A stretch of 60,870 nucleotides of DNA, taken from assembly GCA_947631415.1 (NCBI GenBank), contig CANRLG010000005.1:1-60870 (forward strand), in the 5' to 3' direction. The DNA is from an uncultured Clostridia bacterium (GTDB lineage: Bacteria > Bacillota > Clostridia > TANB77 > CAG-465). Shown piece after piece: positions 20,747 through 60,870 of the stretch. The notes under the pieces are model-generated. The model did no database searches, was not told the origin of the DNA, and worked only from the letters and a program-made list of their open reading frames with translations. Position 1 is the stretch's first letter, and every line of letters starts with the position of its first letter. A program made the translations under genes and the position numbers.

Positions 20747-20992
20747 ATAATATTCAACTCCTTAAATAAATATTACTTTATTGTAACATTTTTTGTCAAA
20801 ATTACAAAAATATTATATATTAAAAACCAAAAAAAGTCAATAAATAAAGGCTTTTTAGATTATTTACATAATTTGTAATAAGACTACATAATTTTATGTT
20901 ACATTATTGACTTAAATTTGTTTTTTATGCTATAATCGAAATATAAGGGGTAATATTAATATATTATTTTTTGTTATAGGAGGATGAATCTA

Positions 20993-35442: not shown

Positions 35443-38400
35443 ATGAAAAAAGCTAAATTATTTACAGTAATAGCATTGATGTTTATGTGCATTGCTATGT
35501 TTGGAACAGCCGAAGTACAAGCAAGAACCTTTTCTTATGGTAAGGGTTCAAGCACCAATTTATATGAATCTACTGGTGCTGGTGGAGACACAGACCATTC
35601 ATATTATAACTACTTTCTTGATGGTGAGAAAGTATGGTGTGTTGAGGCCGGAGTTAAGATAAAAAATAGTGCAAACTATACTGAATCACAGGTATGGGGT
35701 GGTACAGCAGCAATAAGCTATGTTATGTTTATGTACTATGATGGAAAGATTAGTGACCAGCTTTCACAGGCTGCTGTTTGGCAGATGATGCAAAGTATTA
35801 ATGGTTCTCATCTTACTAGTGGTAACATAGGTAGAGTTTATGAAGTAATTACAGAAGCAGAAAATTATGTTGCAAATCAAAACGCACAATCTGGTTCTAT
35901 TCAACCAAGTAGTGGAAATTTATATTTTGATGCAGGAAGTAATACATATAGAATGGACTTTACAGCATCTAGTATGCCATCAACATCTGCAGGAAGGATA
36001 CAAGATAATGGTGGTGGAAGCTATACATTAATTGTTGATGCTAATACTGTTAACTCAGATATGGATATAAGTCTAAGTTCATCTGGTTCAGGATGGATTT
36101 ATAAAGATATGACAGTATGGATTTGTGGTTCATGGCAAAAACTTGCTACTCCAAATCGTGAAGCAGCTGGAAATGCAGGTGCAACATATCATCTAGAAGC
36201 ACTTGGAAGTTTAAAAGTCAGAAAAACAGATGAATTCGGAGAGGGAGTAGCTAGTGCTACATTCTCAGTAACAGGACCTTCAGGAACAAATACATTAACA
36301 ACAGGTGATGATGGTTGGGCATATTGGGACAATATAATAGTAGGAGATTATACAGTAACTGAGACTAGTGTTCCATCTGGACTTTCTAAAAAGCCAAATC
36401 CACAAACAAAACATGTTGGAAGTGGACAAGTTGGTGTAGCAGAATTCTTATATGTAAATGGATATCAAAGAGGTTCAGCACAACTTGTAAAATATGATGA
36501 TGCAGCAAGAACATTTAATATTCGTAAAACATTAGGTGATGCTGTATTAAAAGATGCTGTATATAATCTTTATGCGGCAACAGATATATACGAAGGAAAA
36601 AGACTTCGTTATAGTGCAGGAGAAATAGTAAGGTCAAATTTACATACAGATGTAAATGGTATAACACCAGAGGTCAAAGATTTGCCTATTGGTTCATACT
36701 ACTATGAAGAAGTAACACCATCTGTAGGTTTTGACATTAATAGAGAGAGAGTATATTTATCTATTGGGGCAAACTCTGATCCTGAAGCAACAGAGGCAGG
36801 AAAAGTTGGTGTTGAACATCCAGAAAAACCTCAATGGTATAAAATAGTAATAAATAAAAGATTACAAGAGACAGATTATGATGATGAAGCAAATTTAGCT
36901 TTAAAAGATAATTATCATGACTTTAAAGGAGCTCAATTTAAACTTACATTAAAATCTGATCCAACACAAGTATATTACACACATGGAACTACTGTAAAAG
37001 ATCCAAGTGGAACAACTCCAGAAGAAAAATATGAACCTTTATCTGGAGTAGACGGAATTTGTGAAGCAGAAAATATTCCTTATGGTGTATATACAGTTGA
37101 AGAAGTGCAATGGCCAACTATTGTTTATCAACCAGTACCAAACTTTGATGTAGACTTTAGAGATGACTCTCCTGATGTAACAGATAAAGGAAATAGAGTA
37201 GCTGAATTCATAAATAATAGAAGAATGGTTAATGACTCAAAGAAAGTAACAGTACAAGTAAATAAAAAATTAGTATTGGAAAAATTTGAAGCACCAGATG
37301 GAAGCATAACAGAAGAAGATTCTGATGCAAAGTTAAAAGGTGCAGTATTTGGATTATTTAGAGATACACAAGCAGATAATGGTGGAGAATGTGCATCATG
37401 TCCTATATGTAGAGCTAATATAGAAAAAATGTCACATTATACAGATTATCTTCCACCAGAAGATAAAGACCCAATAAATTACACATTAGATGATTTAAAA
37501 AGATATATTGGATATCAAGAATGTCCAAATTGTGATAACTTTGTAGACTTTATAGGACCTACAAATACTGAGGGATTTGCAGAACTTCAAGGATATGTAT
37601 GGGCAGGAACTTATTACTTAAAAGAAATAGCATTCCCAGAAGGTGTTGATCCTGATGCTACAGTAATAGACCCAGAAAGTACAACATTCTATGATGAAAA
37701 AGACAATAAAAATCCAAATAAAAACTTTTGGTTTGTTGATAAGGGAGAAGCAGTTGAAGAATCTGGTGTTAAGTACAGAGATAAGATATATACATTAGTA
37801 ATGCCTCCTGAAGATCAAGAAGATGAGCATAGAACATACTCATATGATTTATTAAATCGTCCAAAGAGAAATAGAATTGAAATTAAAAAGATGCTTGAAG
37901 GTGCATCAAATACAGAAAGACATGAATTTGAAAACTGTATTTTTACAGCATATTTGAAATCTTCTATTGGAACTGATCATGAATTTTCAAGAGAAGTTGA
38001 AGACCCTACAGATACAGCTGGTTGGGCAACAATATTAGACTTACCTTATGGTGAATATATAGTTAAAGAAACTTATCATCCACCAATTTCATTACAATGT
38101 TCAGACTTTACAATATTTATAGAAGAAGATATAAAGGAACATCCACAACCTTATGTACCAACTGATGGTGTATTCTCACAAATGGAACAAGTTATAGATA
38201 CACCAACAGGAGCAATAGTTGACCCTATCAAAAAAATGAAAATAAAGATTAGAAAAGTTGATGCTGAAAGAAGAGAAGATTATAACAAAGATTATACTTC
38301 TGGTGATGCATCTCTTGAAGGAGCAAGATATGGAGTTTATGGACTAGATGAAGATAACAACTTCACTAAGTATGTAGGTGAAATAGTTATAGATCAAAAA

Positions 38401-41400
38401 GATGATGATGGATATTGGTGTGGATATTCTGATGAACTTGCAGCAGGAAGTTATAAAGTAGTCGAGCTTGCAAAACAAAATGGAAATATAGCTTATGCTG
38501 AAGGTTATTATGTTGATGGAGAAGAACATTACTTCTATTCAAATCCTGAAGAACAAGATGTTGAACTTGTTCAAGTAACTGATGAATCATCTGAAAAACC
38601 TATAAAAGGTGATATAGAAATATATAAAGAATTACAAAAAAGTAATACTCAAGAATTAGAAATCCTTGAAGGAGCAGAATTTACAGCAACTCTTAAAAAT
38701 AATGATAATACAACTTTAGATAATCCACATTCTGCTGTAACTGATTCAAGAGGATACTGTAAAATAGAAGACTTACCTTATGGAGAATATATAGTAAGAG
38801 AGACTGTAGTTCCAGAAGGTGCAACTCCATGTACACCATTTACAGTTTGGATAAAAGAAGATAAAGTATATACTCCTTCTGAATCACCTGAGGGTATAAT
38901 TGGAGATTTATTATTAAACCCTGCAACTGGAGCTATCATAGATACAGATAAAGAGATGGACATAAAAATTAGAAAAGTAGACTCTGAATGGGATGAATCA
39001 AAAACTCCTGATACAGTACAAGGAGATGCAAAACTTAATGGTGCTGTATACTCAATATACGAATGGAGTAACGTAACTACAGATTACACTATATTTGTAG
39101 ATGATATGGTTGTAGATAAGCAAGATGATAAAGGTTATTGGTATGCAGAGTATGATAACTTAAGACTTGGTAAATACATGGTAGTTGAAAAATGTAAAGT
39201 TAAGTATGGAGAAATGTTAAGTGATGATGGTCATTTAATAGAATATGGTGAATCTTATGCAGAAGGTTATACAACAGATACTAATAGATATTATTTTGAA
39301 GTAAAAGACACACCACAAACACCAAAACATACTTATGCAAGTGAAGATAATGGTTTAGTACAAGTATCTAGAGAAAAGGTAGCTGTAAATAAAATTGTTA
39401 TACATAAACAATTACAAGAAACATCTAATACTCCTAGAGCAGATTTATCAGGAGTTGTTTATAAAGCTGTATTATTATCTAGTTTAGATGATGATGGAGA
39501 AGAAATTACTTCTACAAAAATCTACTATAGTAATCCAACAGATGAATATGGATATTGTGAGATAAGAGACCTTCCTTATGGATTATATGAAGTATCTGAA
39601 AGCGTAGTAAATCCAAAATCTTTACAAGGTTCTAACTTCCAAGTTAAAATTGAAGAAGATTATCAAGCAAGACCTAATGGATATAACCCAGTTACTGATG
39701 GTACATTCTTAGGAACAAATCAAATATTAGATACAGATAATGGAACATTAGTTGATAAATCTAAAAAGATGATAATTAAACTAAAGAAAGTAGATACAGA
39801 AAAATCTGGAGAAGCAAATGATGCAACAAGTGGTGGAGCAAATCTTAAAGGTGCGATATACGAAGTATACAAATTTAATGAATTTACACAAAGTTATGAT
39901 ATACAATGTGCAGACATTGAAGTAAAAGAAAAAGATGAAAATGGTTTTTGGTATGCACAAACAGAAGATTTATCACTTGGAAAATATAAAATAGTTGAAA
40001 AAGCAAAAGATGGTGATTATTCTTATGCAGAAGGTTATTTAGTAGACCACAAAGAATATTTCTTTGAACAAGATGAAGAAGAACAAGCAGATGAATATTC
40101 ATATCATGAAGCAATTTCAGATGAACAAGTTATTAAAAATGATATAAAAATAATTAAGAAAATTGGAGAAACAACAAATACTGCTTTAGAAGGACTTGAA
40201 GGAGCTCAATTTACAGCAACATTAAAATCAAGTATAGGAACAGAAAATGAAGTTAAATTCTTAAGTACAATAACAGATGATAAAGGATATTGTATTATAG
40301 AAGATGTACCTTATGGAGAATATGTAGTTGAAGAAACAACAGTACCAGATAGTACATTCAAATGTTCAAACTTTACAGTATTTGTAGAGAATGACAAAGA
40401 TGATAAAACAGAACCTTATACTCCAACAGATGGTGCTTTTGATAATACAGACCAAAGAATAGATGAAACAGGTGCAATCGTAGATACACCAAAAATAATG
40501 GATATCAAATTAAGAAAAGTAGATTTTGATAGAACAGTTGAAGCACCAGATTGGACACAAGGTAATGCAGATTTACAAGGTGCGATATATAAGATATATG
40601 CACAAAATAAAGAAAATGGACAATATGATGTCTATGTAGATGAATTAGTAATTAATCAAAAAGATGAAGAAGGATATTGGTATGGAACATTAACTGGTTT
40701 AAAAACTGGAAACTACATGGCAATAGAAAAAGCACAAGAAAATGGTTTATATTCATATGCCGAAGGATATAAAGTAGACCCAGAACCACATTATTTCATA
40801 CAAAATCCAGCAGAACAACATGAAGAAAGAGTAACAATAACACAAGTTTCTAATGAAAAAGTAATTAGAAATAATATTGAAATATTAAAAGAAATAGGAG
40901 AAACAACAAATACTGAGATTACTACTCTTGCAGGATGTCAGTTCACAGCAACATTAGTTAAAGACCCAACAAAACAATATGTAAGTACTTTAACTGATGA
41001 AACAGGACATTGCATAATTGAAGATTTACCTTATGGTGAATATGTAGTAGAAGAAACAGTAGTTGCTCCAACATCATTAAAATGCTCTAACTTCACAGTA
41101 TTTATAAGAGAAGATGAAGAAGTTCATGAAGCATATCATCCAACAGATGGCTCATTTGATAATGCACAACAAAGAGTAGATGATAACGGTGCAATTATTG
41201 ATACACCAAAAGTAATGGATTTAAAAATTAGAAAAACAGATGCAGATAGAACAAATGAAGAAGTGGATTGGACACAAGGGGATGCTCAATTAGAAGGAGC
41301 AAGATACGATATTTATAGATATAATCCAGAAACAAAAGAATATGACGAATTTATAAATACAGTAACAATAGATCATCAAGATGATGAAGGATATTGGTGT

Positions 41401-44343
41401 GCAGAATATAAAGGCGTATTTATAGGAAAATACATGATGGTAGAACAAACTGCATATACAGATGATAACGGTGTTAAATATTCACATGCTAAAGGATATA
41501 AAGTAGATGAACAAAAATATTACTTTGAATCAATACCAGAAGAACAAACAGAAAGAGTAAGACTTGTAACTCAAGAATCAAAAGAAGATGTTCTAAGAGG
41601 AAAAGTAGAAGTAATTAAAATGGTAGATGAGCAATATAGTACTGAAGAAAATCCAGCAAAAGGAGCAATCTTAAGACTATCATTACAATCAAATCCAGAT
41701 ATTTACTATGATGTAACAATAGATAAAGATGGATATGGAGTATTCTTAGATAAGAATGATGAATTACATTCAACATCAGTTAAAACAAATTATGGTGAAA
41801 AATATGGAGAATTCTCAATACCTTATGGTAATTATATGATTACAGAGGTAAGAGAAAGTGATACAGGATTACACTTAAGTTATTACATTTACCCAGAAAG
41901 AAATGTTACAATTTACAATCAAGATGAAGTTGAAAAGAGAATTGAATGGGATGATGGAATAGCTGTAAAATTAAAAATGCATAAATATGATGAAGAAACA
42001 GGAAGAACAATAGTACTTGCAGGAACAAAATTCAAAATATGGGATAAAAAGTATAATAGATTTGTAACTCAAAGAATACCAAGTACAGGAGAGTACAAAG
42101 ATGAATTTGTAACAAATAACGAAGGTTACCTACAATTACCAGATAACATAGAAGCTGGTTACTATGTAATATATGAATTGGATGCACCAGAAGGATATTA
42201 CGTTGAAGACAAGTTTAGATTACCAGAAAATGAAAGTGATTATGGTAATACAGATGTATCAGGAAAAGAAATCGTAATAACAACAAGAACAACTGGACTT
42301 CCAGATGACCCACAATATAATGAGTCAATAGAAGTATTATATGATGCAGAAGTTGGAGATAGACCTCTAATGGGACAAATTAAAATATACAAAAATGGTG
42401 AGGTATTTACTGGAGTAGAAAGTACAACAGAAGATGTTGAAGGAGATTTATACGAAGTAAAAAGACCAAAATTTGAAAATAGAGGACTAGCAGATGTAGA
42501 ATTCACAATTTATGCAGCAGAAGATATTTATACAAAAGATGGTTCACAACGTTATACAGAAGGACAAGAAGTAGATAGAATAACAACAGATGAAGATGGT
42601 GTTGCAACAACAAAAGAGCTATACTTAGGAGAATATAGAATTGAAGAAACTAAGACACCTCTTGGATATGTAACAGAAACAGATATTAGAAATGTAACTT
42701 TAACAAATGAAGATAATTTCCAAAGAGTAAAATTACAAGAAAAATATATAGATAATGATAGACAAGATAATGAACTAGTATTTAATAAATACTTCTCAGA
42801 TATGGAATTTGTAGCAGGAGAGCCACAAGAGAAACATGCAGTATTTGGAGTATTTGCAGGAGAAGACATAAAAGGCTACAGAGGAGCAACATTAATAAGA
42901 AAAGATGAATTAGTAGATATAATTGAAGCTAGTGAAGGAGAAGTAAGAGCAACACTAGAGTTACCAGATGGAAACTATTATTATAGAGAAATTTATTCAT
43001 CATATCCATATAGCTTAAATGGAGAAGATTTCCCATTTGTAATAACTCATAAAGATACAACATCACAAGCATATACAATATATGGTAAAGATGTTTCAAA
43101 TGATTATACTTATGGAGAATTATATCTAGCTAAATTCTCAACATCAGATTTCTTAACAGAAAATGATACAACATTATATAATGAAGATTCTGCACAAGAA
43201 GCTGCTGAACAAGCTATTGCAGAATATGTAGATGAATTAAATAGAATAATATCTGATGGTGGAAGTGTTGAAGAAGTTGAAGCAAAACTAGAAAGCGACA
43301 GAATAGCAATACTTGAAGGCGCTGAATATGCAATTTACTTAGATGAAGAATGTACAAAACCATTAAGAAAATATAATGAAAATGGACAATTAGAAGATGT
43401 AAAAATAGTAACAGATGGAGCTGGATTATATAAAATGGATAGAATACCACTTGGATTATACTATCTAAAAGAAACAAAAGCACCAACTTATACAGATAAG
43501 AAAGGTGGAGTATATCAATACGAAATTTCAAAAGATGTAGTAGCAGTTGATGTAAACCCAGTAAGACCATCAAATATAGTAATAAGAGCATTATATGATG
43601 TAGCAGTAAAATTTGAAGTTGAAAAACTAGATATCTTTACAGGTAAGAGAGTTCCAGAATGTTTATTTACTATAACAGATGAAGCAGGAACAGAGCTTGT
43701 AAAATTCATAACAGATGAAGATGGTAGATCATATATTCCAACAGACATATTTGAGAATAATGAATATTACTATTTCACAGAATTAGAAGCAAAAAATCCA
43801 TTCTATTATGATGAAAATGGAAAATTATATGAATTGGATACACAACCACATAAATTCCAAGCACATGTTGATAGTGAAGGTAAATGGCAATTAAATTATG
43901 TAGATGAAGATGGTAATATAGTACCTTACGAAAAACCAGTAGTATTTAACTACAGACCTACATCAACAGTAACATTAGAAAAATTAGATATGATGGATTC
44001 AACACCAGTTCCAAATTGTAAATTTGAATTAAGAAGTAAAGAAACAGACTTCGTAGTAGAAGGTGTTACAGATGAAAATGGAAGATATGTATTTGAAAAT
44101 ATACCTTATGGAGAATACACATATACAGAATTAGAAGCTCCAGAAGAATATATGATAGATACAGAACCACATGATATAACAATTAATTCAGAAGAAACAA
44201 AAATTGTAGTAAAAGACTTAAGAAATCCATTTATAGATGTAGATACATCAGATATTGCAGTTGGAACTATTGCAGTAGTAATGTTAATAAGTATGTTTGG
44301 TATAGTTTTTGTAATAAGAAAGAAAGCTATTTCAAATAAATAG
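35443..44343 (+). CDS. giant (2966 aa) cell-surface adhesin: signal peptide, candidate thioester-type N-terminal domain, many Cna-B/SpaA-type domains, C-terminal TM plus basic tail
   Basis: signal peptide MKKAKLFTVIALMFMCIAMFGTAEVQA; recurrent LPYGEY(I/V)V(K/R/E)ET and GxYxxxE motifs typical of Cna-B/SpaA folds; strong RBS GGGGGAG. Confidence 0.9.
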   Translation: MKKAKLFTVIALMFMCIAMFGTAEVQARTFSYGKGSSTNLYESTGAGGDTDHSYYNYFLDGEKVWCVEAGVKIKNSANYTESQVWGGTAAISYVMFMYYDGKISDQLSQAAVWQMMQSINGSHLTSGNIGRVYEVITEAENYVANQNAQSGSIQPSSGNLYFDAGSNTYRMDFTASSMPSTSAGRIQDNGGGSYTLIVDANTVNSDMDISLSSSGSGWIYKDMTVWICGSWQKLATPNREAAGNAGATYHLEALGSLKVRKTDEFGEGVASATFSVTGPSGTNTLTTGDDGWAYWDNIIVGDYTVTETSVPSGLSKKPNPQTKHVGSGQVGVAEFLYVNGYQRGSAQLVKYDDAARTFNIRKTLGDAVLKDAVYNLYAATDIYEGKRLRYSAGEIVRSNLHTDVNGITPEVKDLPIGSYYYEEVTPSVGFDINRERVYLSIGANSDPEATEAGKVGVEHPEKPQWYKIVINKRLQETDYDDEANLALKDNYHDFKGAQFKLTLKSDPTQVYYTHGTTVKDPSGTTPEEKYEPLSGVDGICEAENIPYGVYTVEEVQWPTIVYQPVPNFDVDFRDDSPDVTDKGNRVAEFINNRRMVNDSKKVTVQVNKKLVLEKFEAPDGSITEEDSDAKLKGAVFGLFRDTQADNGGECASCPICRANIEKMSHYTDYLPPEDKDPINYTLDDLKRYIGYQECPNCDNFVDFIGPTNTEGFAELQGYVWAGTYYLKEIAFPEGVDPDATVIDPESTTFYDEKDNKNPNKNFWFVDKGEAVEESGVKYRDKIYTLVMPPEDQEDEHRTYSYDLLNRPKRNRIEIKKMLEGASNTERHEFENCIFTAYLKSSIGTDHEFSREVEDPTDTAGWATILDLPYGEYIVKETYHPPISLQCSDFTIFIEEDIKEHPQPYVPTDGVFSQMEQVIDTPTGAIVDPIKKMKIKIRKVDAERREDYNKDYTSGDASLEGARYGVYGLDEDNNFTKYVGEIVIDQKDDDGYWCGYSDELAAGSYKVVELAKQNGNIAYAEGYYVDGEEHYFYSNPEEQDVELVQVTDESSEKPIKGDIEIYKELQKSNTQELEILEGAEFTATLKNNDNTTLDNPHSAVTDSRGYCKIEDLPYGEYIVRETVVPEGATPCTPFTVWIKEDKVYTPSESPEGIIGDLLLNPATGAIIDTDKEMDIKIRKVDSEWDESKTPDTVQGDAKLNGAVYSIYEWSNVTTDYTIFVDDMVVDKQDDKGYWYAEYDNLRLGKYMVVEKCKVKYGEMLSDDGHLIEYGESYAEGYTTDTNRYYFEVKDTPQTPKHTYASEDNGLVQVSREKVAVNKIVIHKQLQETSNTPRADLSGVVYKAVLLSSLDDDGEEITSTKIYYSNPTDEYGYCEIRDLPYGLYEVSESVVNPKSLQGSNFQVKIEEDYQARPNGYNPVTDGTFLGTNQILDTDNGTLVDKSKKMIIKLKKVDTEKSGEANDATSGGANLKGAIYEVYKFNEFTQSYDIQCADIEVKEKDENGFWYAQTEDLSLGKYKIVEKAKDGDYSYAEGYLVDHKEYFFEQDEEEQADEYSYHEAISDEQVIKNDIKIIKKIGETTNTALEGLEGAQFTATLKSSIGTENEVKFLSTITDDKGYCIIEDVPYGEYVVEETTVPDSTFKCSNFTVFVENDKDDKTEPYTPTDGAFDNTDQRIDETGAIVDTPKIMDIKLRKVDFDRTVEAPDWTQGNADLQGAIYKIYAQNKENGQYDVYVDELVINQKDEEGYWYGTLTGLKTGNYMAIEKAQENGLYSYAEGYKVDPEPHYFIQNPAEQHEERVTITQVSNEKVIRNNIEILKEIGETTNTEITTLAGCQFTATLVKDPTKQYVSTLTDETGHCIIEDLPYGEYVVEETVVAPTSLKCSNFTVFIREDEEVHEAYHPTDGSFDNAQQRVDDNGAIIDTPKVMDLKIRKTDADRTNEEVDWTQGDAQLEGARYDIYRYNPETKEYDEFINTVTIDHQDDEGYWCAEYKGVFIGKYMMVEQTAYTDDNGVKYSHAKGYKVDEQKYYFESIPEEQTERVRLVTQESKEDVLRGKVEVIKMVDEQYSTEENPAKGAILRLSLQSNPDIYYDVTIDKDGYGVFLDKNDELHSTSVKTNYGEKYGEFSIPYGNYMITEVRESDTGLHLSYYIYPERNVTIYNQDEVEKRIEWDDGIAVKLKMHKYDEETGRTIVLAGTKFKIWDKKYNRFVTQRIPSTGEYKDEFVTNNEGYLQLPDNIEAGYYVIYELDAPEGYYVEDKFRLPENESDYGNTDVSGKEIVITTRTTGLPDDPQYNESIEVLYDAEVGDRPLMGQIKIYKNGEVFTGVESTTEDVEGDLYEVKRPKFENRGLADVEFTIYAAEDIYTKDGSQRYTEGQEVDRITTDEDGVATTKELYLGEYRIEETKTPLGYVTETDIRNVTLTNEDNFQRVKLQEKYIDNDRQDNELVFNKYFSDMEFVAGEPQEKHAVFGVFAGEDIKGYRGATLIRKDELVDIIEASEGEVRATLELPDGNYYYREIYSSYPYSLNGEDFPFVITHKDTTSQAYTIYGKDVSNDYTYGELYLAKFSTSDFLTENDTTLYNEDSAQEAAEQAIAEYVDELNRIISDGGSVEEVEAKLESDRIAILEGAEYAIYLDEECTKPLRKYNENGQLEDVKIVTDGAGLYKMDRIPLGLYYLKETKAPTYTDKKGGVYQYEISKDVVAVDVNPVRPSNIVIRALYDVAVKFEVEKLDIFTGKRVPECLFTITDEAGTELVKFITDEDGRSYIPTDIFENNEYYYFTELEAKNPFYYDENGKLYELDTQPHKFQAHVDSEGKWQLNYVDEDGNIVPYEKPVVFNYRPTSTVTLEKLDMMDSTPVPNCKFELRSKETDFVVEGVTDENGRYVFENIPYGEYTYTELEAPEEYMIDTEPHDITINSEETKIVVKDLRNPFIDVDTSDIAVGTIAVVMLISMFGIVFVIRKKAISNK
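37867..41604 (+). repeat. five tandem two-domain coding repeats (periods 738, 780, 750, 732 and 729 nt) inside the giant adhesin gene
   Basis: aligned anchors IEIKK (37876), IEIYK (38614), IVIHK (39394), IKIIK (40144), IEILK (40876), VEVIK (41605); each unit repeats ...LPYGEYxVxET...PTDG...IDT...MxIKxRKVD...GDAxLxGAxY...GYWxxxxxxLxxGxYxxxE. Confidence 0.85.
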
Positions 44344-44437
44344 AAAATATTCCTTAATTTGAGGATACTACATTAATTTGTAGTATCTTCAAATGGGGAT
44401 ATTATGATATATTAAAACTATAGAAAGAGGTATATAT

Positions 44438-47194
44438 ATGAGAAGAAAAATTTTATATTTTGTAACTTTTATATTACTAGTTGCATTTTATACTGCACTT
44501 CCAACAAGTGTGAAAGCTGTTGCTCAATTTGAACATGATGAATTGGATTTATCTTCAGTTTCAAGTGCTGTCAGAGCATCAACAGCTAGAATTACAACAA
44601 GATATATAGATGTTGTATCTAGAGTAGAAATTGCAAGTAGTACTAGTAAAGTTTACAGCGTAGGTGATACATATACTACAAGTCCAATAAGCATTAATGG
44701 ATATAAACTAGAAGTTACTCCATCAAATGCTACAGGAAAAGTAATTCAATCACCTTTAACAGTAACTTATGAATATAGAAAACAATTAACTGTTACAACT
44801 AAATATGTAGATAAAGTAACAGGAATACAAATTACTTCTACATCTGAGACTTATCCACAAGGTGCTTTCTATAAAACAGAAAAGAAAGATATACCAGGAT
44901 ATCAGTATGTTGAAGATTCAAAAAATACAGAAGGAACAGTAGGAAATACAAATATTGAAGTTACATATTCATATAAAAGAAATAATTGTGAAGTTGTAAC
45001 AAAATATGTGGATGTCGTAACAGGCAGAGAGATAACTCAAAGTAGTTCACAAACAGGCTTAGAAGGAGAAGCATATTCTACAAATGTTGCCGAAGTGGAT
45101 AGGTATACACTTGAAGTAATTCCTTCAAACAATACAGGTGTATTTTCACAAGGACAAACTGTAGTTACATACAAATATAGAAAAAAATCTTACGTAACTA
45201 CTGTATATAAAGATATAGTTAATAATCAAGAAATATACGCAAGAAATGTACAAGACTTAAAACAAGGAGATAGTTATCAAACAGAAACAAGATTTGTTGC
45301 TGGATATACGCAAGTAAGTGTAACAGGAGAAACAGCAGGTATAGTTGGAGCTGAAGATATAACTATTACATATAATTACAAGAAAAACAGTGCAGAAGTT
45401 AAAACAAAATATATTGATACTGTAACAAGGAGAGAAATAGCACAAGGTAATACTCAAACTGGTTTGGAAGGTGAGCCTTATCAAACTTTTCCTGAACAAA
45501 TAGATAAATATGTTTTGGAAATAACACCACAAAATGCAAATGGAAATTTCTCAACTTCTGAGATTGAAGTTGTATATGAATATAGAAAACAATTAGATGT
45601 TACAACTAGATATGTTGATGCAGTAAGTGGACAAGATATAGAAACTCCAACTGTTGTACAAATTTTAGAAGAAGGAATATATCGTACAGATGGAACAAAA
45701 ACATTTCCTGGATATACACAAACTGGAGATAGTGGAAATTGTTCTGGAACAGTTGGTCCAAATGATATTGTAGTTGTATATTATTACAAGAAAAACAGTA
45801 ATCCTGTTTATACTAAATTTTTAGATATTTGTAGTAGAGAAAGTATATCACAAACTCTATCTCAAACAGGATTAGAAGGAGAACCTTATCAAACAGCTCC
45901 AATAACAATAGATGGATATGTATTAGAGGTAACTCCAGAAAATGCAAATGGATTTTTTGCAACAGAAGATATAAATGTTGAATATGAATACAGAAAACAA
46001 GTAAACGTTATAACTAAATTTGTAGATGAAGTAGATGAGGTAGATATAGTTAAACCTGTTGAAAAAACATATTTACAAGAAGATGAATATGTAACAGAAC
46101 CAATGGAATTTGAAAACTACACATTAACAGGAGATAGTCAAAATGTTACTGGTACTGTTGGACCAGATACTATTACAGTAACATATTATTATAAGAAAAA
46201 TAGTGCATTTGTTTATACAAATTATATAGATGTTTGTACTAAAGAGCCAATCCCTGGAGTAGAAAGTAAAGTTCAATCTGGACTTGAGAGTATGCCATAT
46301 ACAACAGAACCTATTGAAATACCAGGATATGTTTTGGAAGTAATTCCAGAAAATGCAAATGGTTCATTTACAACAGCTGAAATTAATGTTAATTACGAAT
46401 ATAGAAAACAATCAGATGTAATTACAAAACACGTTGATGCAAATAGTGGAACTGAAATTACAGATAAAGAAGTTGTAACTTATCTTGAAGGAGATACTTA
46501 TACAACTGATGCTGTAGATGTTAAAGGATATATATTAACTAAAACACCAGATGATGCAACTGGAACTGTTGGTAGAGAAGATATAACAGTAACTTATGAA
46601 TATAAGAAAATATCTGAAGGTATAATCGTTAAATACGTAGATAAAGTTACTAATAAAATATTAGATACAAAATATTATGATGGTAATGAAAAAGATGGTG
46701 TAGACCTTCTTGAAGAAAATTTTGATGGATATACATTAGCTCAAGCACCAGAACAAAAACATGTTGAAATGGGTGTTGAAGTTCAAGAGTATGTGTTCTA
46801 TTACTATAAAAACGTAACTGTTATGGTTGATGGAATAGATACAGATAGCAGAAGAGTTTTATGGGAATATACTATTGATGGTGTAGAAAATGAAGAATAT
46901 CATACAGAGCCAAGAGAAGTACCAGGATATACTTTAGTAAAAACTCCTGAAAATGCTCAAGGTGTTCATGCAAGAACAAATACAGTTGTATATTATGAAT
47001 ATTCTAAAAATATATTACTTGGAGATGTTAATTTAGATGGTTTTATAAATTCAACAGATGCAGCTTACGTTCTAGATAAATATAAAAATGAAGATGCTAA
47101 TAATCAAGATCTTTTATATGGAGATATGAATAATGATGGAATTTTAAATTCAACAGATGCTGCTATGATACTAGATATATTTAAAAATTCATAA
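44438..47194 (+). CDS. secreted protein with 12 MucBP-like repeats and a C-terminal type-I dockerin
   Basis: signal peptide MRRKILYFVTFILLVAFYTALPTSVKA; about 67-aa repeats T(K/R)Y(V/I)D..(T/S)G..I....Q.G.EG..Y.T....I.GY.L......A.G.....I.V.YEY(R/K)K; dockerin at the C-terminus. Confidence 0.88.
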   Translation: MRRKILYFVTFILLVAFYTALPTSVKAVAQFEHDELDLSSVSSAVRASTARITTRYIDVVSRVEIASSTSKVYSVGDTYTTSPISINGYKLEVTPSNATGKVIQSPLTVTYEYRKQLTVTTKYVDKVTGIQITSTSETYPQGAFYKTEKKDIPGYQYVEDSKNTEGTVGNTNIEVTYSYKRNNCEVVTKYVDVVTGREITQSSSQTGLEGEAYSTNVAEVDRYTLEVIPSNNTGVFSQGQTVVTYKYRKKSYVTTVYKDIVNNQEIYARNVQDLKQGDSYQTETRFVAGYTQVSVTGETAGIVGAEDITITYNYKKNSAEVKTKYIDTVTRREIAQGNTQTGLEGEPYQTFPEQIDKYVLEITPQNANGNFSTSEIEVVYEYRKQLDVTTRYVDAVSGQDIETPTVVQILEEGIYRTDGTKTFPGYTQTGDSGNCSGTVGPNDIVVVYYYKKNSNPVYTKFLDICSRESISQTLSQTGLEGEPYQTAPITIDGYVLEVTPENANGFFATEDINVEYEYRKQVNVITKFVDEVDEVDIVKPVEKTYLQEDEYVTEPMEFENYTLTGDSQNVTGTVGPDTITVTYYYKKNSAFVYTNYIDVCTKEPIPGVESKVQSGLESMPYTTEPIEIPGYVLEVIPENANGSFTTAEINVNYEYRKQSDVITKHVDANSGTEITDKEVVTYLEGDTYTTDAVDVKGYILTKTPDDATGTVGREDITVTYEYKKISEGIIVKYVDKVTNKILDTKYYDGNEKDGVDLLEENFDGYTLAQAPEQKHVEMGVEVQEYVFYYYKNVTVMVDGIDTDSRRVLWEYTIDGVENEEYHTEPREVPGYTLVKTPENAQGVHARTNTVVYYEYSKNILLGDVNLDGFINSTDAAYVLDKYKNEDANNQDLLYGDMNNDGILNSTDAAMILDIFKNS
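44588..47011 (+). repeat. 12 tandem MucBP-like coding repeats (about 201 nt each) alternating between two subtypes
   Basis: 808 aa divide into 12 units; odd units end ...YEYRKQ and even units end ...Y(S/N/Y)YK(R/K)N, giving five clear double repeats of about 134 aa. Confidence 0.8.
47021..47191 (+). other. type-I dockerin module (two calcium-binding EF-hand-like segments)
   Basis: GDVNLDGFINSTDAAYVLDKY ... GDMNNDGILNSTDAAMILDIF, i.e. two copies of D-x-N-x-DG-x-(I/L)-N-S-T-D-A-x-x-(V/I)-L. Confidence 0.85.
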
Positions 47195-47202
47195 AACTTT
47201 TT

Positions 47203-47238
47203 GAAGTGGGTATTATATAATGCCTGCTTCTTTTTTTT
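47203..47238 (+). terminator. probable intrinsic terminator
   Basis: G-U-rich 10-bp stem GAAGTGGGTA/TGCCTGCTTC, followed by T8. Confidence 0.5.
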
Positions 47239-47305
47239 CCCTAAATAAAATGCTTTAAAAATATATATTTTTAATATATAATATATATGTAAATTGAGGT
47301 GTATT

Positions 47306-49754: not shown

Positions 49755-50324
49755 TTATTGCCACATTCCTTTTCCATTACTTTTAGCTTCTTTTTCAAAG
49801 TCTTCAAGATAAGATTGAAGTGATATATCTGGTTTATAATAATTACTTTGTGCAAGACCCTCTTGAACAAGTTTTGCGTTAAATAGATAATTTGAGATAT
49901 TTTCTTCATTAATTTCATTTACTTCTTCTGTCCAAACATATCTTAAAAGTCTATCATAATCATCTGTATCACTTACATCTTTTTGCAAATAGATTGTTTT
50001 ATCTTCTAAATATTGTGTAGTAAATTCTGTTGCTTCTTTACCAAATGGCTCAATTTCTTTAGTATATTCTGGACAGTTAATACCTATAAATCTCACTTTA
50101 TAAGATTTTCCTTCAATATCTACCCATATAGTATCACCATCAACAATCTTTGTTACTTTTGCCTTAGTAAGTTCTAATTTATCAGTAGTATTACTTGTAT
50201 TTAAAGTTTGTGTATCAGAGATAGGATTGTTATTATCAAAAATTTTATCTTTTGAATATATAGTTACAAGTATTACAAATGTAATACTTAATACGCTAAT
50301 TATTAAACTCTTATACTTTTTCAT
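49755..50324 (-). CDS. secreted or membrane-anchored thermonuclease (SNase family)
   Basis: VTKIVDGDTIWV...VRFIGINCPE...FGKEATEF...DRLLRYVW staphylococcal-nuclease motifs; start set at ATG 50324 rather than TTG 50336. Confidence 0.8.
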   Translation of the reverse strand: MKKYKSLIISVLSITFVILVTIYSKDKIFDNNNPISDTQTLNTSNTTDKLELTKAKVTKIVDGDTIWVDIEGKSYKVRFIGINCPEYTKEIEPFGKEATEFTTQYLEDKTIYLQKDVSDTDDYDRLLRYVWTEEVNEINEENISNYLFNAKLVQEGLAQSNYYKPDISLQSYLEDFEKEAKSNGKGMWQ

Positions 50325-50452
50325 AATTATCACCAAAATAATTATATATTATTTTTATCATTAATACAAATAATTTTGGTATTTTTATGGTATATAAAAA
50401 TGTTTGACTTAAGAACTACTGTTTGGTATAATTAAACAGAGGTGGAGTAGAA

Positions 50453-51489: not shown

Positions 51490-52215
51490 ATGAAGAAAAT
51501 TTTAATGCATGTGTGTTGTGCACCATGTTTTGTAATGATTGAAGAAGATATACAAAAAAATGGAATGAATATTAATGGAAAAAGAGAACAAGTAGATTTA
51601 ACAGCTTTTTGGTATAACCCAAATATTCATCCACAAGAAGAAAATAAACTTCGACTTGAAGCATTTAAAAAATTATGTGGTGAAGATAATATAAAGTCAG
51701 TAATAATAGATGAATGTGAAATGAAAGAATTTACTAATATTACTCAAAATGAAGTTGGAACAAATAAGAGATATAAACTTAGATGTGAATATTGTTACTA
51801 CTTAAGACTTGAAAAAACATTTGAATACGCAAAAGAAAATGGCTATGATATTGTATCTACTTCTCTTACTAGAAGTCCTTACCAAAATCATGAGTTAATA
51901 AATAAAATTGCACAGATACTATCTAAAAAGTATGGTGTTGAATATTCGTATCAAGATTATAGACATACATATTTTGAGGGACAACAACGCGCAAGAGAAC
52001 GTGGATTATATATGCAAAAGTATTGTGGTTGTATATTCTCAAGCGTTGAATCACTTCTTCAAAAGAAACTTTCTAAATATTTAAAAAGAATGAATATTAA
52101 ACCTTCTACGAAAGTTATTCAAGATATAATAGAAGATTATAAAAAAGAAAATAATGGAACTGTAAATATTGAAAAAATTGTTAATGATTATAAAGAAAAA
52201 TCAACAAATATATAG
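51490..52215 (+). CDS. queH: epoxyqueuosine reductase QueH (DUF208)
   Basis: MHVCCAPC N-terminus, CEYCYYLRL and YCGC cysteine motifs. Confidence 0.85.
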   Translation: MKKILMHVCCAPCFVMIEEDIQKNGMNINGKREQVDLTAFWYNPNIHPQEENKLRLEAFKKLCGEDNIKSVIIDECEMKEFTNITQNEVGTNKRYKLRCEYCYYLRLEKTFEYAKENGYDIVSTSLTRSPYQNHELINKIAQILSKKYGVEYSYQDYRHTYFEGQQRARERGLYMQKYCGCIFSSVESLLQKKLSKYLKRMNIKPSTKVIQDIIEDYKKENNGTVNIEKIVNDYKEKSTNI

Positions 52216-55491: not shown

Positions 55492-58400
55492 ATGGAAAAA
55501 AGTGATAGTAATGCTAAAAAAATTTTCAAAGTTGCCATATGTTTAATAGTTTTCTCTATGATTATGGTTGCATTTGGAAGTGTAGCATTTGCTCAAGAAA
55601 ATAATTCCCAAAATGAAGTTTTAAACACAGGGGATTATATTTTAAAAAATATAAACACAGAATATGCTAAGGCAGAAAAACTTGAGCCATACGACATAAT
55701 AGATGTTAAGCAAACAATGGCTGATGGTTCAAAGCTAACTTCTAGTGAATCATTAGAAGCTATGTTTTCAGAAACACCAGAAGCTTTTATATTTATGAGT
55801 GAAGCATATATGCCTATGTATAATACAGATGATGCTAGCCCATATTATGTGGCTTATATTGATACAATGCATAATGATGCAAATTCAAAAATTGCAGAAG
55901 TAGATTTTGCATATACAAATACCGATGGAGAAGTAATCACAGATGCAATTTTTGATAGTGAAACAGGTATTGCATATATACCTAAAAAATATACTGAAGA
56001 AAATAAAAATGGATTGGGCATAATGAATGTTCAAGTCCAACTTCTTCAAGTATGTAATTCAGAAAATCCTTCAACAACTATTAAAACTATAGTTGAAAAA
56101 GGAGAAGGAATTGAAGGAGAAACTATTGAAACAGGATATGTACAATTAAATGCTATAGATACTGATGTTACATTAAGTGTAGCAAAAGATGAAAATGCTA
56201 AAAGAAGTATCCAAGCAAGAGATATAGTTGTTAAGAAAAATGGCTATGAAACTAAAAATTTCACATATAATAGTGAAAAAGGTGAAATAAGAATAGTTGA
56301 TTGTCAACCATGCTCAGTTGATACAATTGAGATTTCTTTAAATAAAGATAACAATAATGATGAAATACAAGATACTGCTTATGGAATAGCTACAGTAGCT
56401 AATGGAGATCCTCTATCAAGCACTTCAGATTTCTGGAATGATGATCCATATGCAGGTGGAACATTTACTTCAGGTACTACATGGAAATCAGATAAAGAGC
56501 CTTTAGCTGGTGGTACAGTTAGAGTAAGTGGAATATCTTTACTATACCATGAAGGTGATGGAAATAGAATAGTAGATTCACAGTATAACCAAGCCTATGT
56601 TCCAGGTAAAGCACTAGATGATGATTTGACTAAGCTAGTTACTGCAATAAGAGATAATGTAAATAACATAGATCCAACTCAACTTGTTGGTTCTACAAAC
56701 TTTATGTCATGGACTTTGGATATTCCAGAAGGAACTCAAATCAATTATGAGGGAACTACATTTACAATACCACAAAGTAGTTATGAAGTAAGATGTGCGC
56801 ATTCAGTAAGTAGTTTTACTAGTGGAACTTCAACAACATATTCAGATATGGAAATCAAACTATTTGCTGTAAACCCAGCAAATAGCACTATGCTTGTTGG
56901 TGTTCTTGCACCATTTACACATAACCAATCAGGAACAGCTTTATATAAAATAAGATATGAAATGCTTATTACAAATGGTAAAATAGTAGTACATAAAAGA
57001 GAATCATTAACAAATAATCCAATTGAAGGAGTAACATTCAACATTTTAAATGATAATGGTGATGTAGTAGATACAATCACTACAAACGGAGATGGATATG
57101 CAGAAACTAAAAATTTACCAGCTGGACATTATAGATGTCAAGAAATAGGAGTACCTGCAGATGTTATTTTAAGTGGTGAAACACAAGAAGCAACAATTTC
57201 TGCAGAAAGTTTAGCTCCAGAACTTACATTTGTAGATGATTCTACTGCATATGCTCAAATTGAGAAAAAAGATGAATATGGAGATTCTCTAGCAGGAGTA
57301 AGATTCCAAATTTATGATTCAAAACAACAACCTATCCAAGTTATAACTACTGGAGATAATGGAATTGCAAAAACTACAGCTCTAAAATTAGGAGACTATT
57401 ATTATCAAGAGATATCTGTACCTGCAGATGATATAATAATGGATACTGAAATGCATCCTTTCCAATTAAGAGTAAGAGGAAGAACAGAATCATTTTCTAT
57501 GAGAAATTCATATGAAAGAGGAAATATGAAAGTCATCAAAAAAGATGAATGGGATGTAAGAATTCAAGGAGCAGTATTCCATATTAGTGGTGGACCAGAA
57601 AAAGAACCAATAGATGCAGATTATACAACTGATTCTAATGGTGAAATTTCTCTAACAGATTTAAGACTTGGAGAATATACAATAGTTGAGAAAAATGTTC
57701 CAGAAACATTAACTTTAAATCAAAATACATTTACAGTAAATGTTGAAGCAGATTCAGAAGTAACTTATACAGTTGAAAATGAATATGCAAGAGGAGAACT
57801 TTCAATAACAAAAGAAGATATCTTCAAACAAGATGGTAAGAAAAACTGGGGTGATGCAACATATAAAGACATCGAAGTTGAATTACACGCTGCAGAAGAT
57901 ATTTATGAAGGTAAAACTAAAGTTTTAGATGCAGATGAATTTGTTGCAAAAAGAGTATTTAAAACTGATGGAACAACTGAAAGTGTAAGAGAATTTACAA
58001 GACAAGATGATGGAGTATATTTTGATGGACTTCCAATAGGACAATATTATTGGAAAGAAGTAAAAACAAATAAAGCATATCTTGCACCTCAAGTTTCAGT
58101 TGTTGCAGAAACAAAGAAAGAAAAATATGAACAAGAAATTGAGTTTGTGGACATGCTTACTCATAACATTCCTGGTAAAAGTGTGGTAATGTACGACCAA
58201 CCAGTTATGGGTAGAGTTGAAGTATACAAACAGGATGAAAGTAGTAAAACTGGACCAGATGATACTACACATTCTGAAACAAATCCAGCAGAAGGTGCTG
58301 TATTAAGATTAACATTAAAATCTAACTGGAATGAGGTTACAGAACAACCAATAGATCCTACACATGATACATATACAGCAACTGTAAATGAGTATGGTAA

Positions 58401-60870
58401 AGCCGTATTTATAAACCCAGAATTTGAACAATTCCATATGGAAGAAAGAGGAATGGATCCTAATTATACAATTCCATATGGTGTATATGTATTATCTGAA
58501 GATAAAACTAGTGATGATGGTGGAGATTACTTCTATGGAATTCAAGCAACAGATGTTTATGTTGAAGAAAATGATACACCATATTATGTAATAGTTAAAG
58601 ATAATCCAATACCAGTATTCTTAGAAATAGTTAAGAAAGATGCAGATACAGATGATGATAACGGAGCAGAAAAAGAAATAGTTTCATTACCTGATGCTAA
58701 ATTTAAAATTTGGGATTGCTCAGCTAATGAAGGAAAAGGTGGATGGCTAGTTCAAGAACTATCATCAGGTTCTGCAGTACAAGTAGATGAATTTATGACT
58801 AATGAAGAAGGTTATTTAATTACACCTAAAAAATTATATGCAGGTAAGTATATAATTTATGAGACAAAAGCTCCAAAAGGATATTACTTAAATGAAAAAT
58901 ATAGAGTACCAGAAGATGAATCTAAATTAGGAGATGAAAAATACGGTGGACTAGCAATAGATATAACAAATGCAGCCGTATTTGTAGGGGATGCTGAACA
59001 ATATCCAGATATTGGTGAAGTACCAGATTATGAATGGATAGATGATCATTTAAAAATAACAGTTTCAGCAGAAGATAATACTTTAAGAGGAAATATAGAC
59101 TTATATAAAGAAGGTGAAATGTTCAGTAGATTAACTGAAAATACAACAAATTACAGAGATGATGGATTTGATGAAGACTTTACTGAATATATACCAGAAT
59201 ATGAATATAAAGGTCTTGAAGGCTGTAAATTTGAAGTTTCACCAGTAGATGATGTTAAGACTGCTGATGGAAGATTAAAAGAAGCAGCAGGAACTAAACA
59301 CTATATTGTAACAGGTGAAGATGGACATGGAATTTGTAGAAAAGATGAAGGAACAGGTGAAGAAGATTTACTATTCTGTAATCCAGATGGATCTGAATAC
59401 TTAATTCATGAAGTTGAATGTCCAGCAGGTTATGAACCATGTAAAGACTTTACAGTTACAGTAAAACCAGGAGATCAATATACAAAAGTTAAAGTTACTG
59501 ATACAGGTGCAAAAGATGATTATATACCTGTTGAAGTAAGATTAGATAAAGAGTTTGAAAAAGAAAATGAAGAAGGAAAAATATATAGCAACGTATTAGA
59601 TACTCATGCAGTTGCAATATTTGGAATTTATGCAAGTCAAGATTTAGTAGCAGCAAATGGACAAGAATTACCAACTGATACTTTAATTCAAACATTAAGA
59701 GTAGTTGAAGGTGAAGGATTTATAGATACATATAAATTGCCAGATGGTCAATACTATTTAGATGAGTTATATACAACTGAACCTTATACTATTATAGATA
59801 ATGAAACTGACTTACCACATAGATATGAATTTACAGTTACACATTCAAAAGGTGTGTATGAAGAACAAAAAATATTAATTGAAGCTATAAATACATTCCC
59901 TAAAGGAGATTTGTATGTTGTAAAAGTTTCAGATACAGGAGTTGAACAAGCTGCTGGTATAACAGTTAAAGGTGACGATGAAACAAGACAAAGAGTTAAA
60001 GATTTCATTGAACAATACAATAATACAATGCAATTACAAATTGCTAATGGAGATGTAGATTTACTATATGCTGTTGATCAAACAGTTCAAGACTTTAAAG
60101 TAAATGATGAATTTACTTTAACAACACCAGCTGTATATGGAGTATACTTAGATAAAGAATGTACACAACCATTACAATATTCATATAGTAGAGGAGGAAC
60201 ATTCATAAATGTTACATTAGATGCATCTGTTAACGAAGATGGTATGTTAATAGGCTCATACTCAGCACTTGGCTTACCAGTTGGAGAATACTATGTAAAA
60301 GAATTAAGAGCACCTATTTATACAGATAATAATGGAACACCTCATGAATATGAAGTATCAGATGATGTTGAAATGGTTCAAGTAATGGACTCAGACTTTG
60401 CTGACATGAGTGGAGAAAACATAATATTTAGAGTATTCACTGATACAGCCGTTAAATCTCAAATGGATAAGAGAGATATGTTCACAGGAAAAGGTGTACC
60501 AAATTGTCACTTCACAATAACAGATGAAAATGGTAATGAATTACTAGACTTCGTAACATTAGAAGATGGAACTTCAGAAATACCAACAGATATTTTTGAA
60601 GATGGAAAATATTACTACTTCACAGAATTAGAAGCACCAGGATTCCCATATTATGATGGAGATACATTATATGAATTAAATACAGAACCACATAAATTTA
60701 GAGTAGAATATGAAGACAATACATGGAAATTCTATGGAAGAAATCAAGATGAATATGGAAATGAATATGGTGAAGAAGTAGAAAATCCAGTATTACATAA
60801 CTTTAGACCAAGAACAGATATAGAATTACAAAAACTAGATATGATGGATTCAACACCAGTTCCAAATTGT
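55492..60870 (+). CDS. second giant Cna-B/SpaA-type surface adhesin, 3'-truncated by the window edge (at least 1793 aa); paralog of ORF 35443-44343
   Basis: not in the supplied ORF track (no stop in window). ATG 55492 lies 9 nt after AAAGGAGG. The stretches I translated by hand are stop-free, and the frame runs to the last base (5379 nt = 1793 codons). Signal peptide MEKSDSNAKKIFKVAICLIVFSMIMVAFGSVAFA. Cna-B motifs (LPAGHYRCQEI, LKLGDYYYQEI, LRLGEYTIVEK). The last 35 nt are identical to 43985-44019. Confidence 0.85.
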   Translation, partial: MEKSDSNAKKIFKVAICLIVFSMIMVAFGSVAFAQENNSQNEVLNTGDYILKNINTEYAKAEKLEPYDIIDVKQTMADGSKLTSSESLEAMFSETPEAFIFMSEAYMPMYNTDDASPYYVAYIDTMHNDANSKIAEVDFAYTNTDGEVITDAIFDSETGIAYIPKKYTEENKNGLGIMNVQVQLLQVCNSENPSTTIKTIVEKGEGIEGETIETGYVQLNAIDTDVTLSVAKDENAKRSIQARDIVVKKNGYETKNFTYNSEKGEIRIVDCQPCSVDTIEISLNKDNNNDEIQDTAYGIATVANGDPLSSTSDFWNDDPYAGGTFTSGTTWKSDKEPLAGGTVRVSGISLLYHEGDGNRIVDSQYNQAYVPGKALDDDLTKLVTAIRDNVNNIDPTQLVGSTNFMSWTLDIPEGTQINYEGTTFTIPQSSYEVRCAHSVSSFTSGTSTTYSDMEIKLFAVNPANSTMLVGVLAPFTHNQSGTALYKIRYEMLITNGKIVVHKRESLTNNPIEGVTFNILNDNGDVVDTITTNGDGYAETKNLPAGHYRCQEIGVPADVILSGETQEATISAESLAPELTFVDDSTAYAQIEKKDEYGDSLAGVRFQIYDSKQQPIQVITTGDNGIAKTTALKLGDYYYQEISVPADDIIMDTEMHPFQLRVRGRTESFSMRNSYERGNMKVIKKDEWDVRIQGAVFHISGGPEKEPIDADYTTDSNGEISLTDLRLGEYTIVEKNVPETLTLNQNTFTVNVEADSEVTYTVENEYARGELSITKEDIFKQDGKKNWGDATYKDIEVELHAAEDIYEGKTKVLDADEFVAKRVFKTDGTTESVREFTRQDDGVYFDGLPIGQYYWKEVKTNKAYLAPQVSVVAETKKEKYEQEIEFVDMLTHNIPGKSVVMYDQPVMGRVEVYKQDESSKTGPDDTTHSETNPAEGAVLRLTLKSNWNEVTEQPIDPTHDTYTATVNEYGKAVFINPEFEQFHMEERGMDPNYTIPYGVYVLSEDKTSDDGGDYFYGIQATDVYVEENDTPYYVIVKDNPIPVFLEIVKKDADTDDDNGAEKEIVSLPDAKFKIWDCSANEGKGGWLVQELSSGSAVQVDEFMTNEEGYLITPKKLYAGKYIIYETKAPKGYYLNEKYRVPEDESKLGDEKYGGLAIDITNAAVFVGDAEQYPDIGEVPDYEWIDDHLKITVSAEDNTLRGNIDLYKEGEMFSRLTENTTNYRDDGFDEDFTEYIPEYEYKGLEGCKFEVSPVDDVKTADGRLKEAAGTKHYIVTGEDGHGICRKDEGTGEEDLLFCNPDGSEYLIHEVECPAGYEPCKDFTVTVKPGDQYTKVKVTDTGAKDDYIPVEVRLDKEFEKENEEGKIYSNVLDTHAVAIFGIYASQDLVAANGQELPTDTLIQTLRVVEGEGFIDTYKLPDGQYYLDELYTTEPYTIIDNETDLPHRYEFTVTHSKGVYEEQKILIEAINTFPKGDLYVVKVSDTGVEQAAGITVKGDDETRQRVKDFIEQYNNTMQLQIANGDVDLLYAVDQTVQDFKVNDEFTLTTPAVYGVYLDKECTQPLQYSYSRGGTFINVTLDASVNEDGMLIGSYSALGLPVGEYYVKELRAPIYTDNNGTPHEYEVSDDVEMVQVMDSDFADMSGENIIFRVFTDTAVKSQMDKRDMFTGKGVPNCHFTITDENGNELLDFVTLEDGTSEIPTDIFEDGKYYYFTELEAPGFPYYDGDTLYELNTEPHKFRVEYEDNTWKFYGRNQDEYGNEYGEEVENPVLHNFRPRTDIELQKLDMMDSTPVPNC

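Follow-up and report, generated by a model that had tools for sequence, protein, structure and literature searches.

A twelve-repeat MucBP protein with a C-terminal type-I-like dockerin beside a giant Cna-B adhesin in an uncultured gut Clostridia lineage

Dockerin-tethered, non-catalytic binding proteins are an established class. In Ruminococcus flavefaciens, adhesion to cellulose is mediated by CttA, which a dockerin-cohesin pair fixes to the sortase-anchored ScaE (PMC4266597), and in strain FD-1 about half of the dockerin proteins, LRR-Doc included, are not carbohydrate-active enzymes (PMC2930009). In Ruminococcus bromii, the amylosome contains the non-catalytic Sas20 and LRR-Doc as well as two pullulanases, Amy10 and Amy12, in which MucBP modules occur together with a dockerin (PMC9112005, PMC5814915, PMC12663171); ethylenediaminetetraacetic acid (EDTA) releases non-catalytic Doc proteins of this species from cells (PMC5814915, PMC9112005, PMC12663171), and its MucBP module sits in starch-degrading enzymes (PMC5814915). 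Here we report on a gene of an uncultured Clostridia bacterium whose product consists of a long MucBP array followed by a dockerin. The gene lies on a complete NCBI contig of 60,870 bp with a G+C content of 28.5% (CANRLG010000005.1, hereafter the window), directly behind the gene of a giant Cna-B adhesin, here called adhesin 1. Its parts are as follows.

44438..47194, plus strand: gene of the MucBP-array/dockerin protein, 918 amino acids (aa); open reading frame (ORF) list and translation, Pfam MucBP and Dockerin_1, four orthologue clusters of matching architecture
44438..44518, plus strand: predicted signal peptide, aa 1-27, cleavage predicted after VKA; read by eye from a basic n-region (RRK), a hydrophobic core and VKA/VA
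44591..47005, plus strand: twelve MucBP repeats, aa 52-856; hidden Markov model (HMM) built from the protein itself (12 domains, each with an independent E-value <=1e-22), identity matrix, Pfam, NCBIfam
47018..47191, plus strand: C-terminal dockerin, aa 861-918, with predicted calcium-binding loops at 47024-47059 and 47123-47158; Pfam, PDB match to CelS, conservation in orthologues

The first-pass annotation of this DNA had proposed a duplicated type-I dockerin at the extreme C-terminus, and profile searches bear this out: Pfam Dockerin_1 (PF00404) matches aa 861-911 with E=7.1e-8 and 33.0 bits, above the gathering score of 22.9, and the best solved relative in a PDB search is the type I dockerin of Clostridium thermocellum CelS (1daq/2mte, E=1e-4), with other cellulosomal dockerins and entries from R. 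bromii and R. flavefaciens also among the matches. A dockerin consists of two tandem segments of ~22 residues, in each of which an EF-hand-like calcium loop of 12 residues, with Asp/Asn at positions 1, 3, 5, 9 and 12, precedes a helix. Judged by sequence, the module has this build, with segments DVNLDGFINSTDAAYVLDKYKN (aa 863-884) and DMNNDGILNSTDAAMILDIFKN (aa 896-917), identical to each other at 14 of 22 positions and joined by an 11-residue linker, and with the predicted 12-residue calcium loops DVNLDGFINSTD and DMNNDGILNSTD. Both segments carry a Ser-Thr pair at positions 10-11, and because the last MucBP repeat stops only 4 residues before the Pfam dockerin match, an X module has no room between them; the predicted recognition pattern is hence that of type I (Ser-Thr at 10-11, no X module). 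Calcium-dependent folding and tight binding to a cohesin would be expected of such a module. When the window was scanned in every frame, EF-hand-type dockerin loops appeared nowhere other than the two of this protein, which is encoded by the one dockerin gene in the 60.9 kb.

A search of 5.8 billion clustered proteins yielded no more than four clusters with this MucBP-dockerin architecture (identities of 99, 71, 70 and 65%), and all four derive from metagenome assemblies. The dockerin, including the Asp/Asn positions of its calcium loops, is conserved across these clusters at 65-99% identity; in P0002 and P0003, segment 1 has Ala-Leu in place of Ser-Thr, while segment 2 still has Ser-Thr.

At the N-terminus of the protein, MRRKILYFVTFILLVAFYTALPTSVKA/VA can be read by eye as a signal peptide for Sec export. 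With an HMM based on its own repeats, the protein resolves into 12 units of 62-65 aa at a spacing of ~67 aa (aa 52-856), Pfam MucBP (PF06458) matches in 11 stretches (E=3.4e-83), an NCBIfam InlJ-type MucBP region matches the array (E=5.5e-71), and repeat 12 matches PDB 2kt7, a Listeria MucBP-type domain. By these matches the protein belongs with the PF06458 repeat proteins, which have tandem modules of ~65 aa. Among repeats R1-R10, identities are 43-62% between odd members, 33-49% between even members and 25-44% between odd and even members, so that the alternation of A and B subtypes is real on average, although the ranges overlap and R10 falls between the two subtypes; R11 and R12 have diverged from the others. 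The signal peptide and the twelve repeats of the first-pass annotation are thus confirmed, with its A/B alternation limited to R1-R10. Inspection of the translated C-terminus likewise agrees with that annotation in finding neither a transmembrane (TM) segment nor a sorting signal. Mucin or a glycan as ligand of the array is suggested by the family name only.

What the dockerin may do is best approached through the relatives that do not have it. The closest non-dockerin MucBP homologues, at 37-46% identity, come from metagenome-assembled genomes (MAGs) of gut Clostridia, and these proteins (P0005-P0058 and others) end in the motif [PVI]xT[GS]D, after which come a hydrophobic helix and a tail of Lys/Arg residues. 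By regular expression the motif is present in at least 56 of 91 MucBP homologues, and a few more were recognised by eye; many of the remaining homologues without the signal are incomplete records. Because the nearest homologues bear their sorting signal at the same C-terminal position, the dockerin replaces a covalent wall anchor, and in this narrow lineage it occupies the place that the anchor has in relatives. This exchange supports a role of the dockerin in tethering or retention and is the strongest comparative argument for reading it as a retention module; the MucBP array would then be tethered at the surface. Of the earlier proposal that a secreted array is tethered through a cohesin-bearing partner, the tethering is therefore reasonable, given the homologues' sorting signal at the dockerin's position; the cohesin partner was not found in the ~70 kb searched.

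Set beside the described systems, the protein resembles CttA in being a non-catalytic binding protein with a C-terminal dockerin that would serve adhesion and not catalysis (PMC4266597). It differs in that CttA has cellulose-binding carbohydrate-binding modules (CBMs), a type III X-module-dockerin dyad and a known cohesin, whereas here there are 12 MucBP repeats and a type-I-like dockerin without X module. With the R. bromii proteins (Amy10, Amy12, Sas20, Doc1/Doc2) it shares the pairing of MucBP and dockerin and the existence of non-catalytic Doc proteins, but in R. bromii MucBP is an accessory to GH13 pullulanases and the scaffoldins are known, whereas here the array is the entire cargo, with no catalytic module or CBM. 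Sortase-anchored MucBP proteins (Listeria InlJ, Lactobacillus Mub, P0005-P0058) likewise begin with a signal peptide followed by tandem MucBP repeats; they end in a covalent sorting signal where this protein has a dockerin, and the present protein has no leucine-rich repeat (LRR) or other head domain. With the type I dockerins of C. thermocellum (CelS) it has in common the two 22-residue segments, the 12-residue loops and Ser-Thr at positions 10-11, and the near symmetry of its segments would be compatible with dual binding; positions 17-18 are, however, Leu-Asp and not Lys-Arg, and the host looks like a non-cellulolytic, low-GC gut bacterium. The first-pass annotation had called an adhesion-oriented cohesin-dockerin system unusual, which overstates the case in view of CttA-ScaE (PMC4266597) and of the MucBP-dockerin and non-catalytic Doc proteins of R. 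bromii (PMC5814915, PMC9112005). New here are a cargo of 12 MucBP repeats that stands alone, a dockerin in place of a sorting signal, the lineage of the host and a constant position behind a giant Cna-B adhesin. The domain architecture is well supported, and the proposed assembly mechanism is plausible, with clear precedents in Ruminococcus.

The explanation that we prefer runs as follows. The protein would be secreted by the Sec pathway as a rod-shaped adhesin built from twelve MucBP modules of the beta-grasp fold, and its C-terminal type-I-like dockerin would fold around two Ca2+ ions and insert, in a calcium-dependent manner, into a cohesin of an anchoring protein encoded outside the ~70 kb examined. 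The MucBP array would in this way be retained non-covalently at the cell surface, the dockerin of this lineage having taken over from the sortase sorting signal of homologous MucBP arrays. The gene, placed directly behind that of a sortase-type giant adhesin with 21 Cna-B domains, is part of an adhesin-rich surface locus. That a dockerin-cohesin pair holds the array on the cell, with the cohesin encoded elsewhere, seems to us probable, though by no means assured.

The search for a partner involved the following neighbours and the sequences between them.

35443..44343, plus strand: giant adhesin 1, 2966 aa, with signal peptide, 238-aa N-terminal domain, 21 Cna-B/SpaA domains and sorting signal; Pfam SpaA (E=1.9e-121), own domain map
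44212..44340, plus strand: sorting signal of adhesin 1, DVDTSD, hydrophobic helix and RKK tail, a variant of LPXTG; sequence, with the same signal in orthologues
44346..44403, plus strand: long conserved stem-loop between adhesin 1 and the dockerin gene, without U tract; -30.8 kcal/mol, z=-6.6
47203..47240, plus strand: intrinsic terminator 3' of the dockerin gene; 12-bp stem and T8 run, -14.4 kcal/mol, z=-4.4
55492..60870, plus strand: giant adhesin 2, running past the window end, with ~470 N-terminal aa, 11 SpaA domains and VDTGD sorting signal; Pfam, domain map, near-identical strain
10129..11904, plus strand: ORF 10129, predicted membrane-anchored protein with two immunoglobulin (Ig)-like domains and an alpha/beta domain; AlphaFold2 (AF2), Foldseek, Pfam
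20984..21634, plus strand: sortase of 216 aa that may act on the variant sorting signals (the link being our reading); Pfam Sortase, E=2.4e-27

The two giant adhesins have the features of sortase-anchored Cna-B/SpaA proteins, with 21 and 11 predicted domains, sorting signals and a sortase gene in the window. In adhesin 1 the Cna-B/SpaA domains of our domain map span aa 266-2923 with every inter-domain gap below 95 aa, so that only aa 28-265 (238 aa) lie outside the map. A cohesin is a nine-stranded jelly-roll fold of ~140 aa. Adhesin 1, which the first-pass annotation had named as an obvious candidate partner, has 21 Cna-B domains, gaps shorter than that, and no cohesin match in Pfam or the PDB; another fold would have room only in the N-terminal 238-aa block. 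This N-terminal domain ranks with the most variable stretches of the protein (45-57% identity) and, searched alone against 5.8 billion proteins, returned a single homologue, a 219-aa fragment. Two motifs in it, WC[VIM]EAG and DQLxQAAVW, do not vary among 4 sequences and are reminiscent of thioester domains (TEDs), in which a Cys in [YFL]C-x-[DNEQ] and a Gln in Q-x-A-[IV]-W form an internal thioester and which are further recognised by a TED profile match; the motifs may therefore be called thioester-like. Their Cys-Gln spacing of ~43 aa is shorter than is usual in solved TEDs. The block gave no TED, Cohesin or other Pfam match at E<=10, no NCBIfam match and no PDB match. Within one Cna-B domain of adhesin 1 (aa ~650-705, window ~37390-37558) there is a zinc-ribbon-like CxxC...CxxC insertion with weak RING/zinc-ribbon Pfam matches; it is kept in L004 and deleted (~84 aa) in the L002 orthologue, which rules it out as the dockerin receptor.

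Adhesin 2, and its N-terminus in particular, was another candidate of the first-pass annotation. Neither Pfam, nor PDB profile searches, nor Foldseek found a cohesin there: an AF2 model built from 5 sequences was of mediocre confidence (pLDDT 64.5, with 70-85 for residues 11-250), and the Foldseek search with it gave nothing at E<=1e-3, nor was a cohesin one of its 50 best matches. The segment (aa 34-507, window 55591-57012) is without family or structural match, and Cys402, His404 and Gln446 (numbered from aa 34) are invariant in 5 homologues; the motifs xCAH ... HNQxG may be another intramolecular cross-link or reactive site. The third candidate, ORF 10129, is not a cohesin. Its ectodomain model is confident (pLDDT 90.5) and shows tandem Ig-like domains, the top PDB matches in Foldseek being tandem Ig/FN3-like proteins (SbsB S-layer, titin, SiiE), cohesin is absent from the Foldseek top 50, and no Pfam Cohesin occurs in 46 family members. 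The family itself is large, comprising 606 representative clusters of uncharacterised, membrane-anchored surface proteins with variable additions, such as a TM tail or, in 2 of the 46, a Pfam LPXTG-anchor match; one of the 46 members scanned, P0160, has an N-terminal dockerin.

Beyond these candidates, several results weigh against a dockerin-cohesin tether. Pfam Cohesin (PF00963) was found in none of the 39 of 41 window ORFs >=150 aa that were scanned, the candidates of the first-pass annotation included; the two ORFs outside the scan, 49755..50336 (minus) and 51490..52215, have L002 counterparts annotated as SNase and QueH. Segments without a family assignment, rescanned with Pfam at E<=10, gave no Cohesin, and NCBIfam added none. 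The 9.5 kb that follow the window end in a near-identical strain (locus L085, contig CANRAK010000029.1, assembly GCA_947628575.1; judging by the accession series, the contig probably belongs to the rabbit, 'Lapin', MAG project) contain genes for two SpaA adhesins and one SocA/Panacea protein, and no Cohesin. Profiles of the three candidate regions (adhesin 1, adhesin 2 and ORF 10129) matched none of the cohesin chains in the PDB and returned noise only, as did searches with single sequences. The search as a whole covered ~70 kb of the genome around the dockerin gene. An assembly of the cellulosome or amylosome kind would call for a scaffoldin or anchoring protein with a cohesin from the same genome, and for several dockerin proteins that share it. 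Dockerin-like modules, moreover, are more numerous than cohesins and are also present where a genome has no recognised cohesin, as Peer et al. reportedly found in 2009. Finally, in 80 loci centred on threonyl-tRNA synthetase (ThrRS) from GTDB species genomes, ORFs for MucBP, dockerin and SpaA proteins are absent within 10 kb of ThrRS, and wider comparative support is therefore missing. A scan of the GTDB species genomes with the 918-aa protein gave zero relatives. GTDB r232 contains no close representative of the lineage to which the contig belongs, because the nearest species-representative genomes have a ThrRS only 68-75% identical; they are uncultured gut Clostridia MAGs (goat ileum, rabbit, human) and Clostridium sp. 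CAG:389.

Where orthologous loci are available, the gene keeps its place. In L001, L002, L003 and L004 it lies directly 3' of a giant SpaA/Cna-B ORF on the same strand, which upholds the reported adjacency to an anchored adhesin; the upstream adhesin measures 2,881-2,966 aa in the three contigs long enough, and in L002 and L004 its orthologue (~2,900 aa) is complete. A strong terminator follows only the dockerin gene, the stretch between the genes having no canonical one; immediately after the adhesin 1 stop codon a stem of ~25 bp can form, with counterparts in L002 (~9903-9966) and L004 (~9803-9851) and, in L004, a compensatory change from C-G to U-A. With no canonical terminator but a long conserved stem-loop between the genes, co-transcription of adhesin 1 and the dockerin gene is plausible, not established. 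Rfam, run on the locus, offered no family for the stem-loop and nothing else relevant. The stem-loop may serve for attenuation, for processing or for stabilising the mRNA.

The results of the cohesin search bear on the alternatives as well. The dockerin might be an orphan, a real calcium-binding fold in an organism with no cohesin, which binds a wall polysaccharide or another fold or merely stabilises the C-terminus, leaving the array loosely attached or released. Such a reading agrees with the lack of a cohesin match in the ~70 kb around the gene, with the single dockerin gene in the window and with a small, low-GC (28.5%) gut Clostridia lineage that shows here no sign of a cellulosome-like gene cluster. 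We nevertheless regard it as rather unlikely: the module keeps canonical cohesin-recognition features (Ser-Thr at 10-11, near-symmetrical segments) that are conserved in orthologues, its position equals that of the homologues' wall anchor, which argues for a specific retention function, and the ~70 kb are all that was seen of the genome. Releasing the array altogether is also the basis of a further explanation, that of a bridging factor whose dockerin docks on cohesins of other bacteria or of sister cells and links them to the MucBP ligand. A protein without an anchor of its own and the failure to find a cognate cohesin nearby would suit it, but no evidence speaks for cross-species specificity, the cohesin-dockerin pairs of cellulosomal systems are usually species-specific, and the anchor swap favours self-retention, so that this explanation must be considered highly improbable.

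A partner closer at hand would be one of the neighbouring giant adhesins, the dockerin binding the 238-aa N-terminal domain of adhesin 1 or another module, be it a divergent cohesin or a non-cohesin receptor; in the resulting two-component fibre, a stalk of Cna-B domains anchored by sortase would bear the MucBP array as its tip. The strictly conserved same-strand adjacency without a canonical terminator between the genes invites this idea, as does the fact that the N-terminal domain of adhesin 1 matches no family. Yet that domain bears conserved thioester-like motifs and is poorly conserved (45-57%), 21 Cna-B domains, everywhere less than 95 aa apart, make up the remainder of adhesin 1, the N-terminus of adhesin 2 is without cohesin match, and a strong conserved stem-loop separates the two genes; we hold the proposal to be improbable. 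Its more specific form, in which the dockerin docks on a non-cohesin module of adhesin 1, e.g. the N-terminal domain, to give a non-covalent two-gene fibre of a wall-linked stalk and an exchangeable MucBP tip, with the stem-loop setting the stoichiometry of the two genes, is a little more doubtful still. The tether through a cohesin encoded elsewhere is the explanation that we retain.

Several features of the wider locus were recorded along the way. Surface proteins of the lineage carry the variant sorting signal [PVI]xT[GS]D (VDTGD, PDTSD, PQTGD, PETGD), a TM helix and a K/R tail rather than LPXTG, and the variant is common to both giant adhesins and to at least 56 of the 91 MucBP homologues. 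In the near-identical strain adhesin 2 is 1898 aa long and ends in VDVDTGD...KKK. At least four giant SpaA/Cna-B adhesins lie within ~35 kb, namely adhesins 1 and 2 and, downstream in the near-identical strain, proteins of 1608 aa and >984 aa; the SocA/Panacea antitoxin-like gene lies between adhesins of the cluster (window 55492-60870 and L085:260-15454), and the N-terminus of the fourth adhesin is a paralogue of that of adhesin 2.

In practical terms, the locus flags a putative dockerin-receptor pair that could be found once a complete genome is at hand. If the proposed tether is correct, it would be a clean natural case of a covalent sortase anchor swapped for a non-covalent, calcium-dependent one, and would take cohesin-dockerin assembly beyond the complexes that degrade polysaccharides, to simple adhesion to host or mucus in a little-known group of uncultured, low-GC gut Clostridia.

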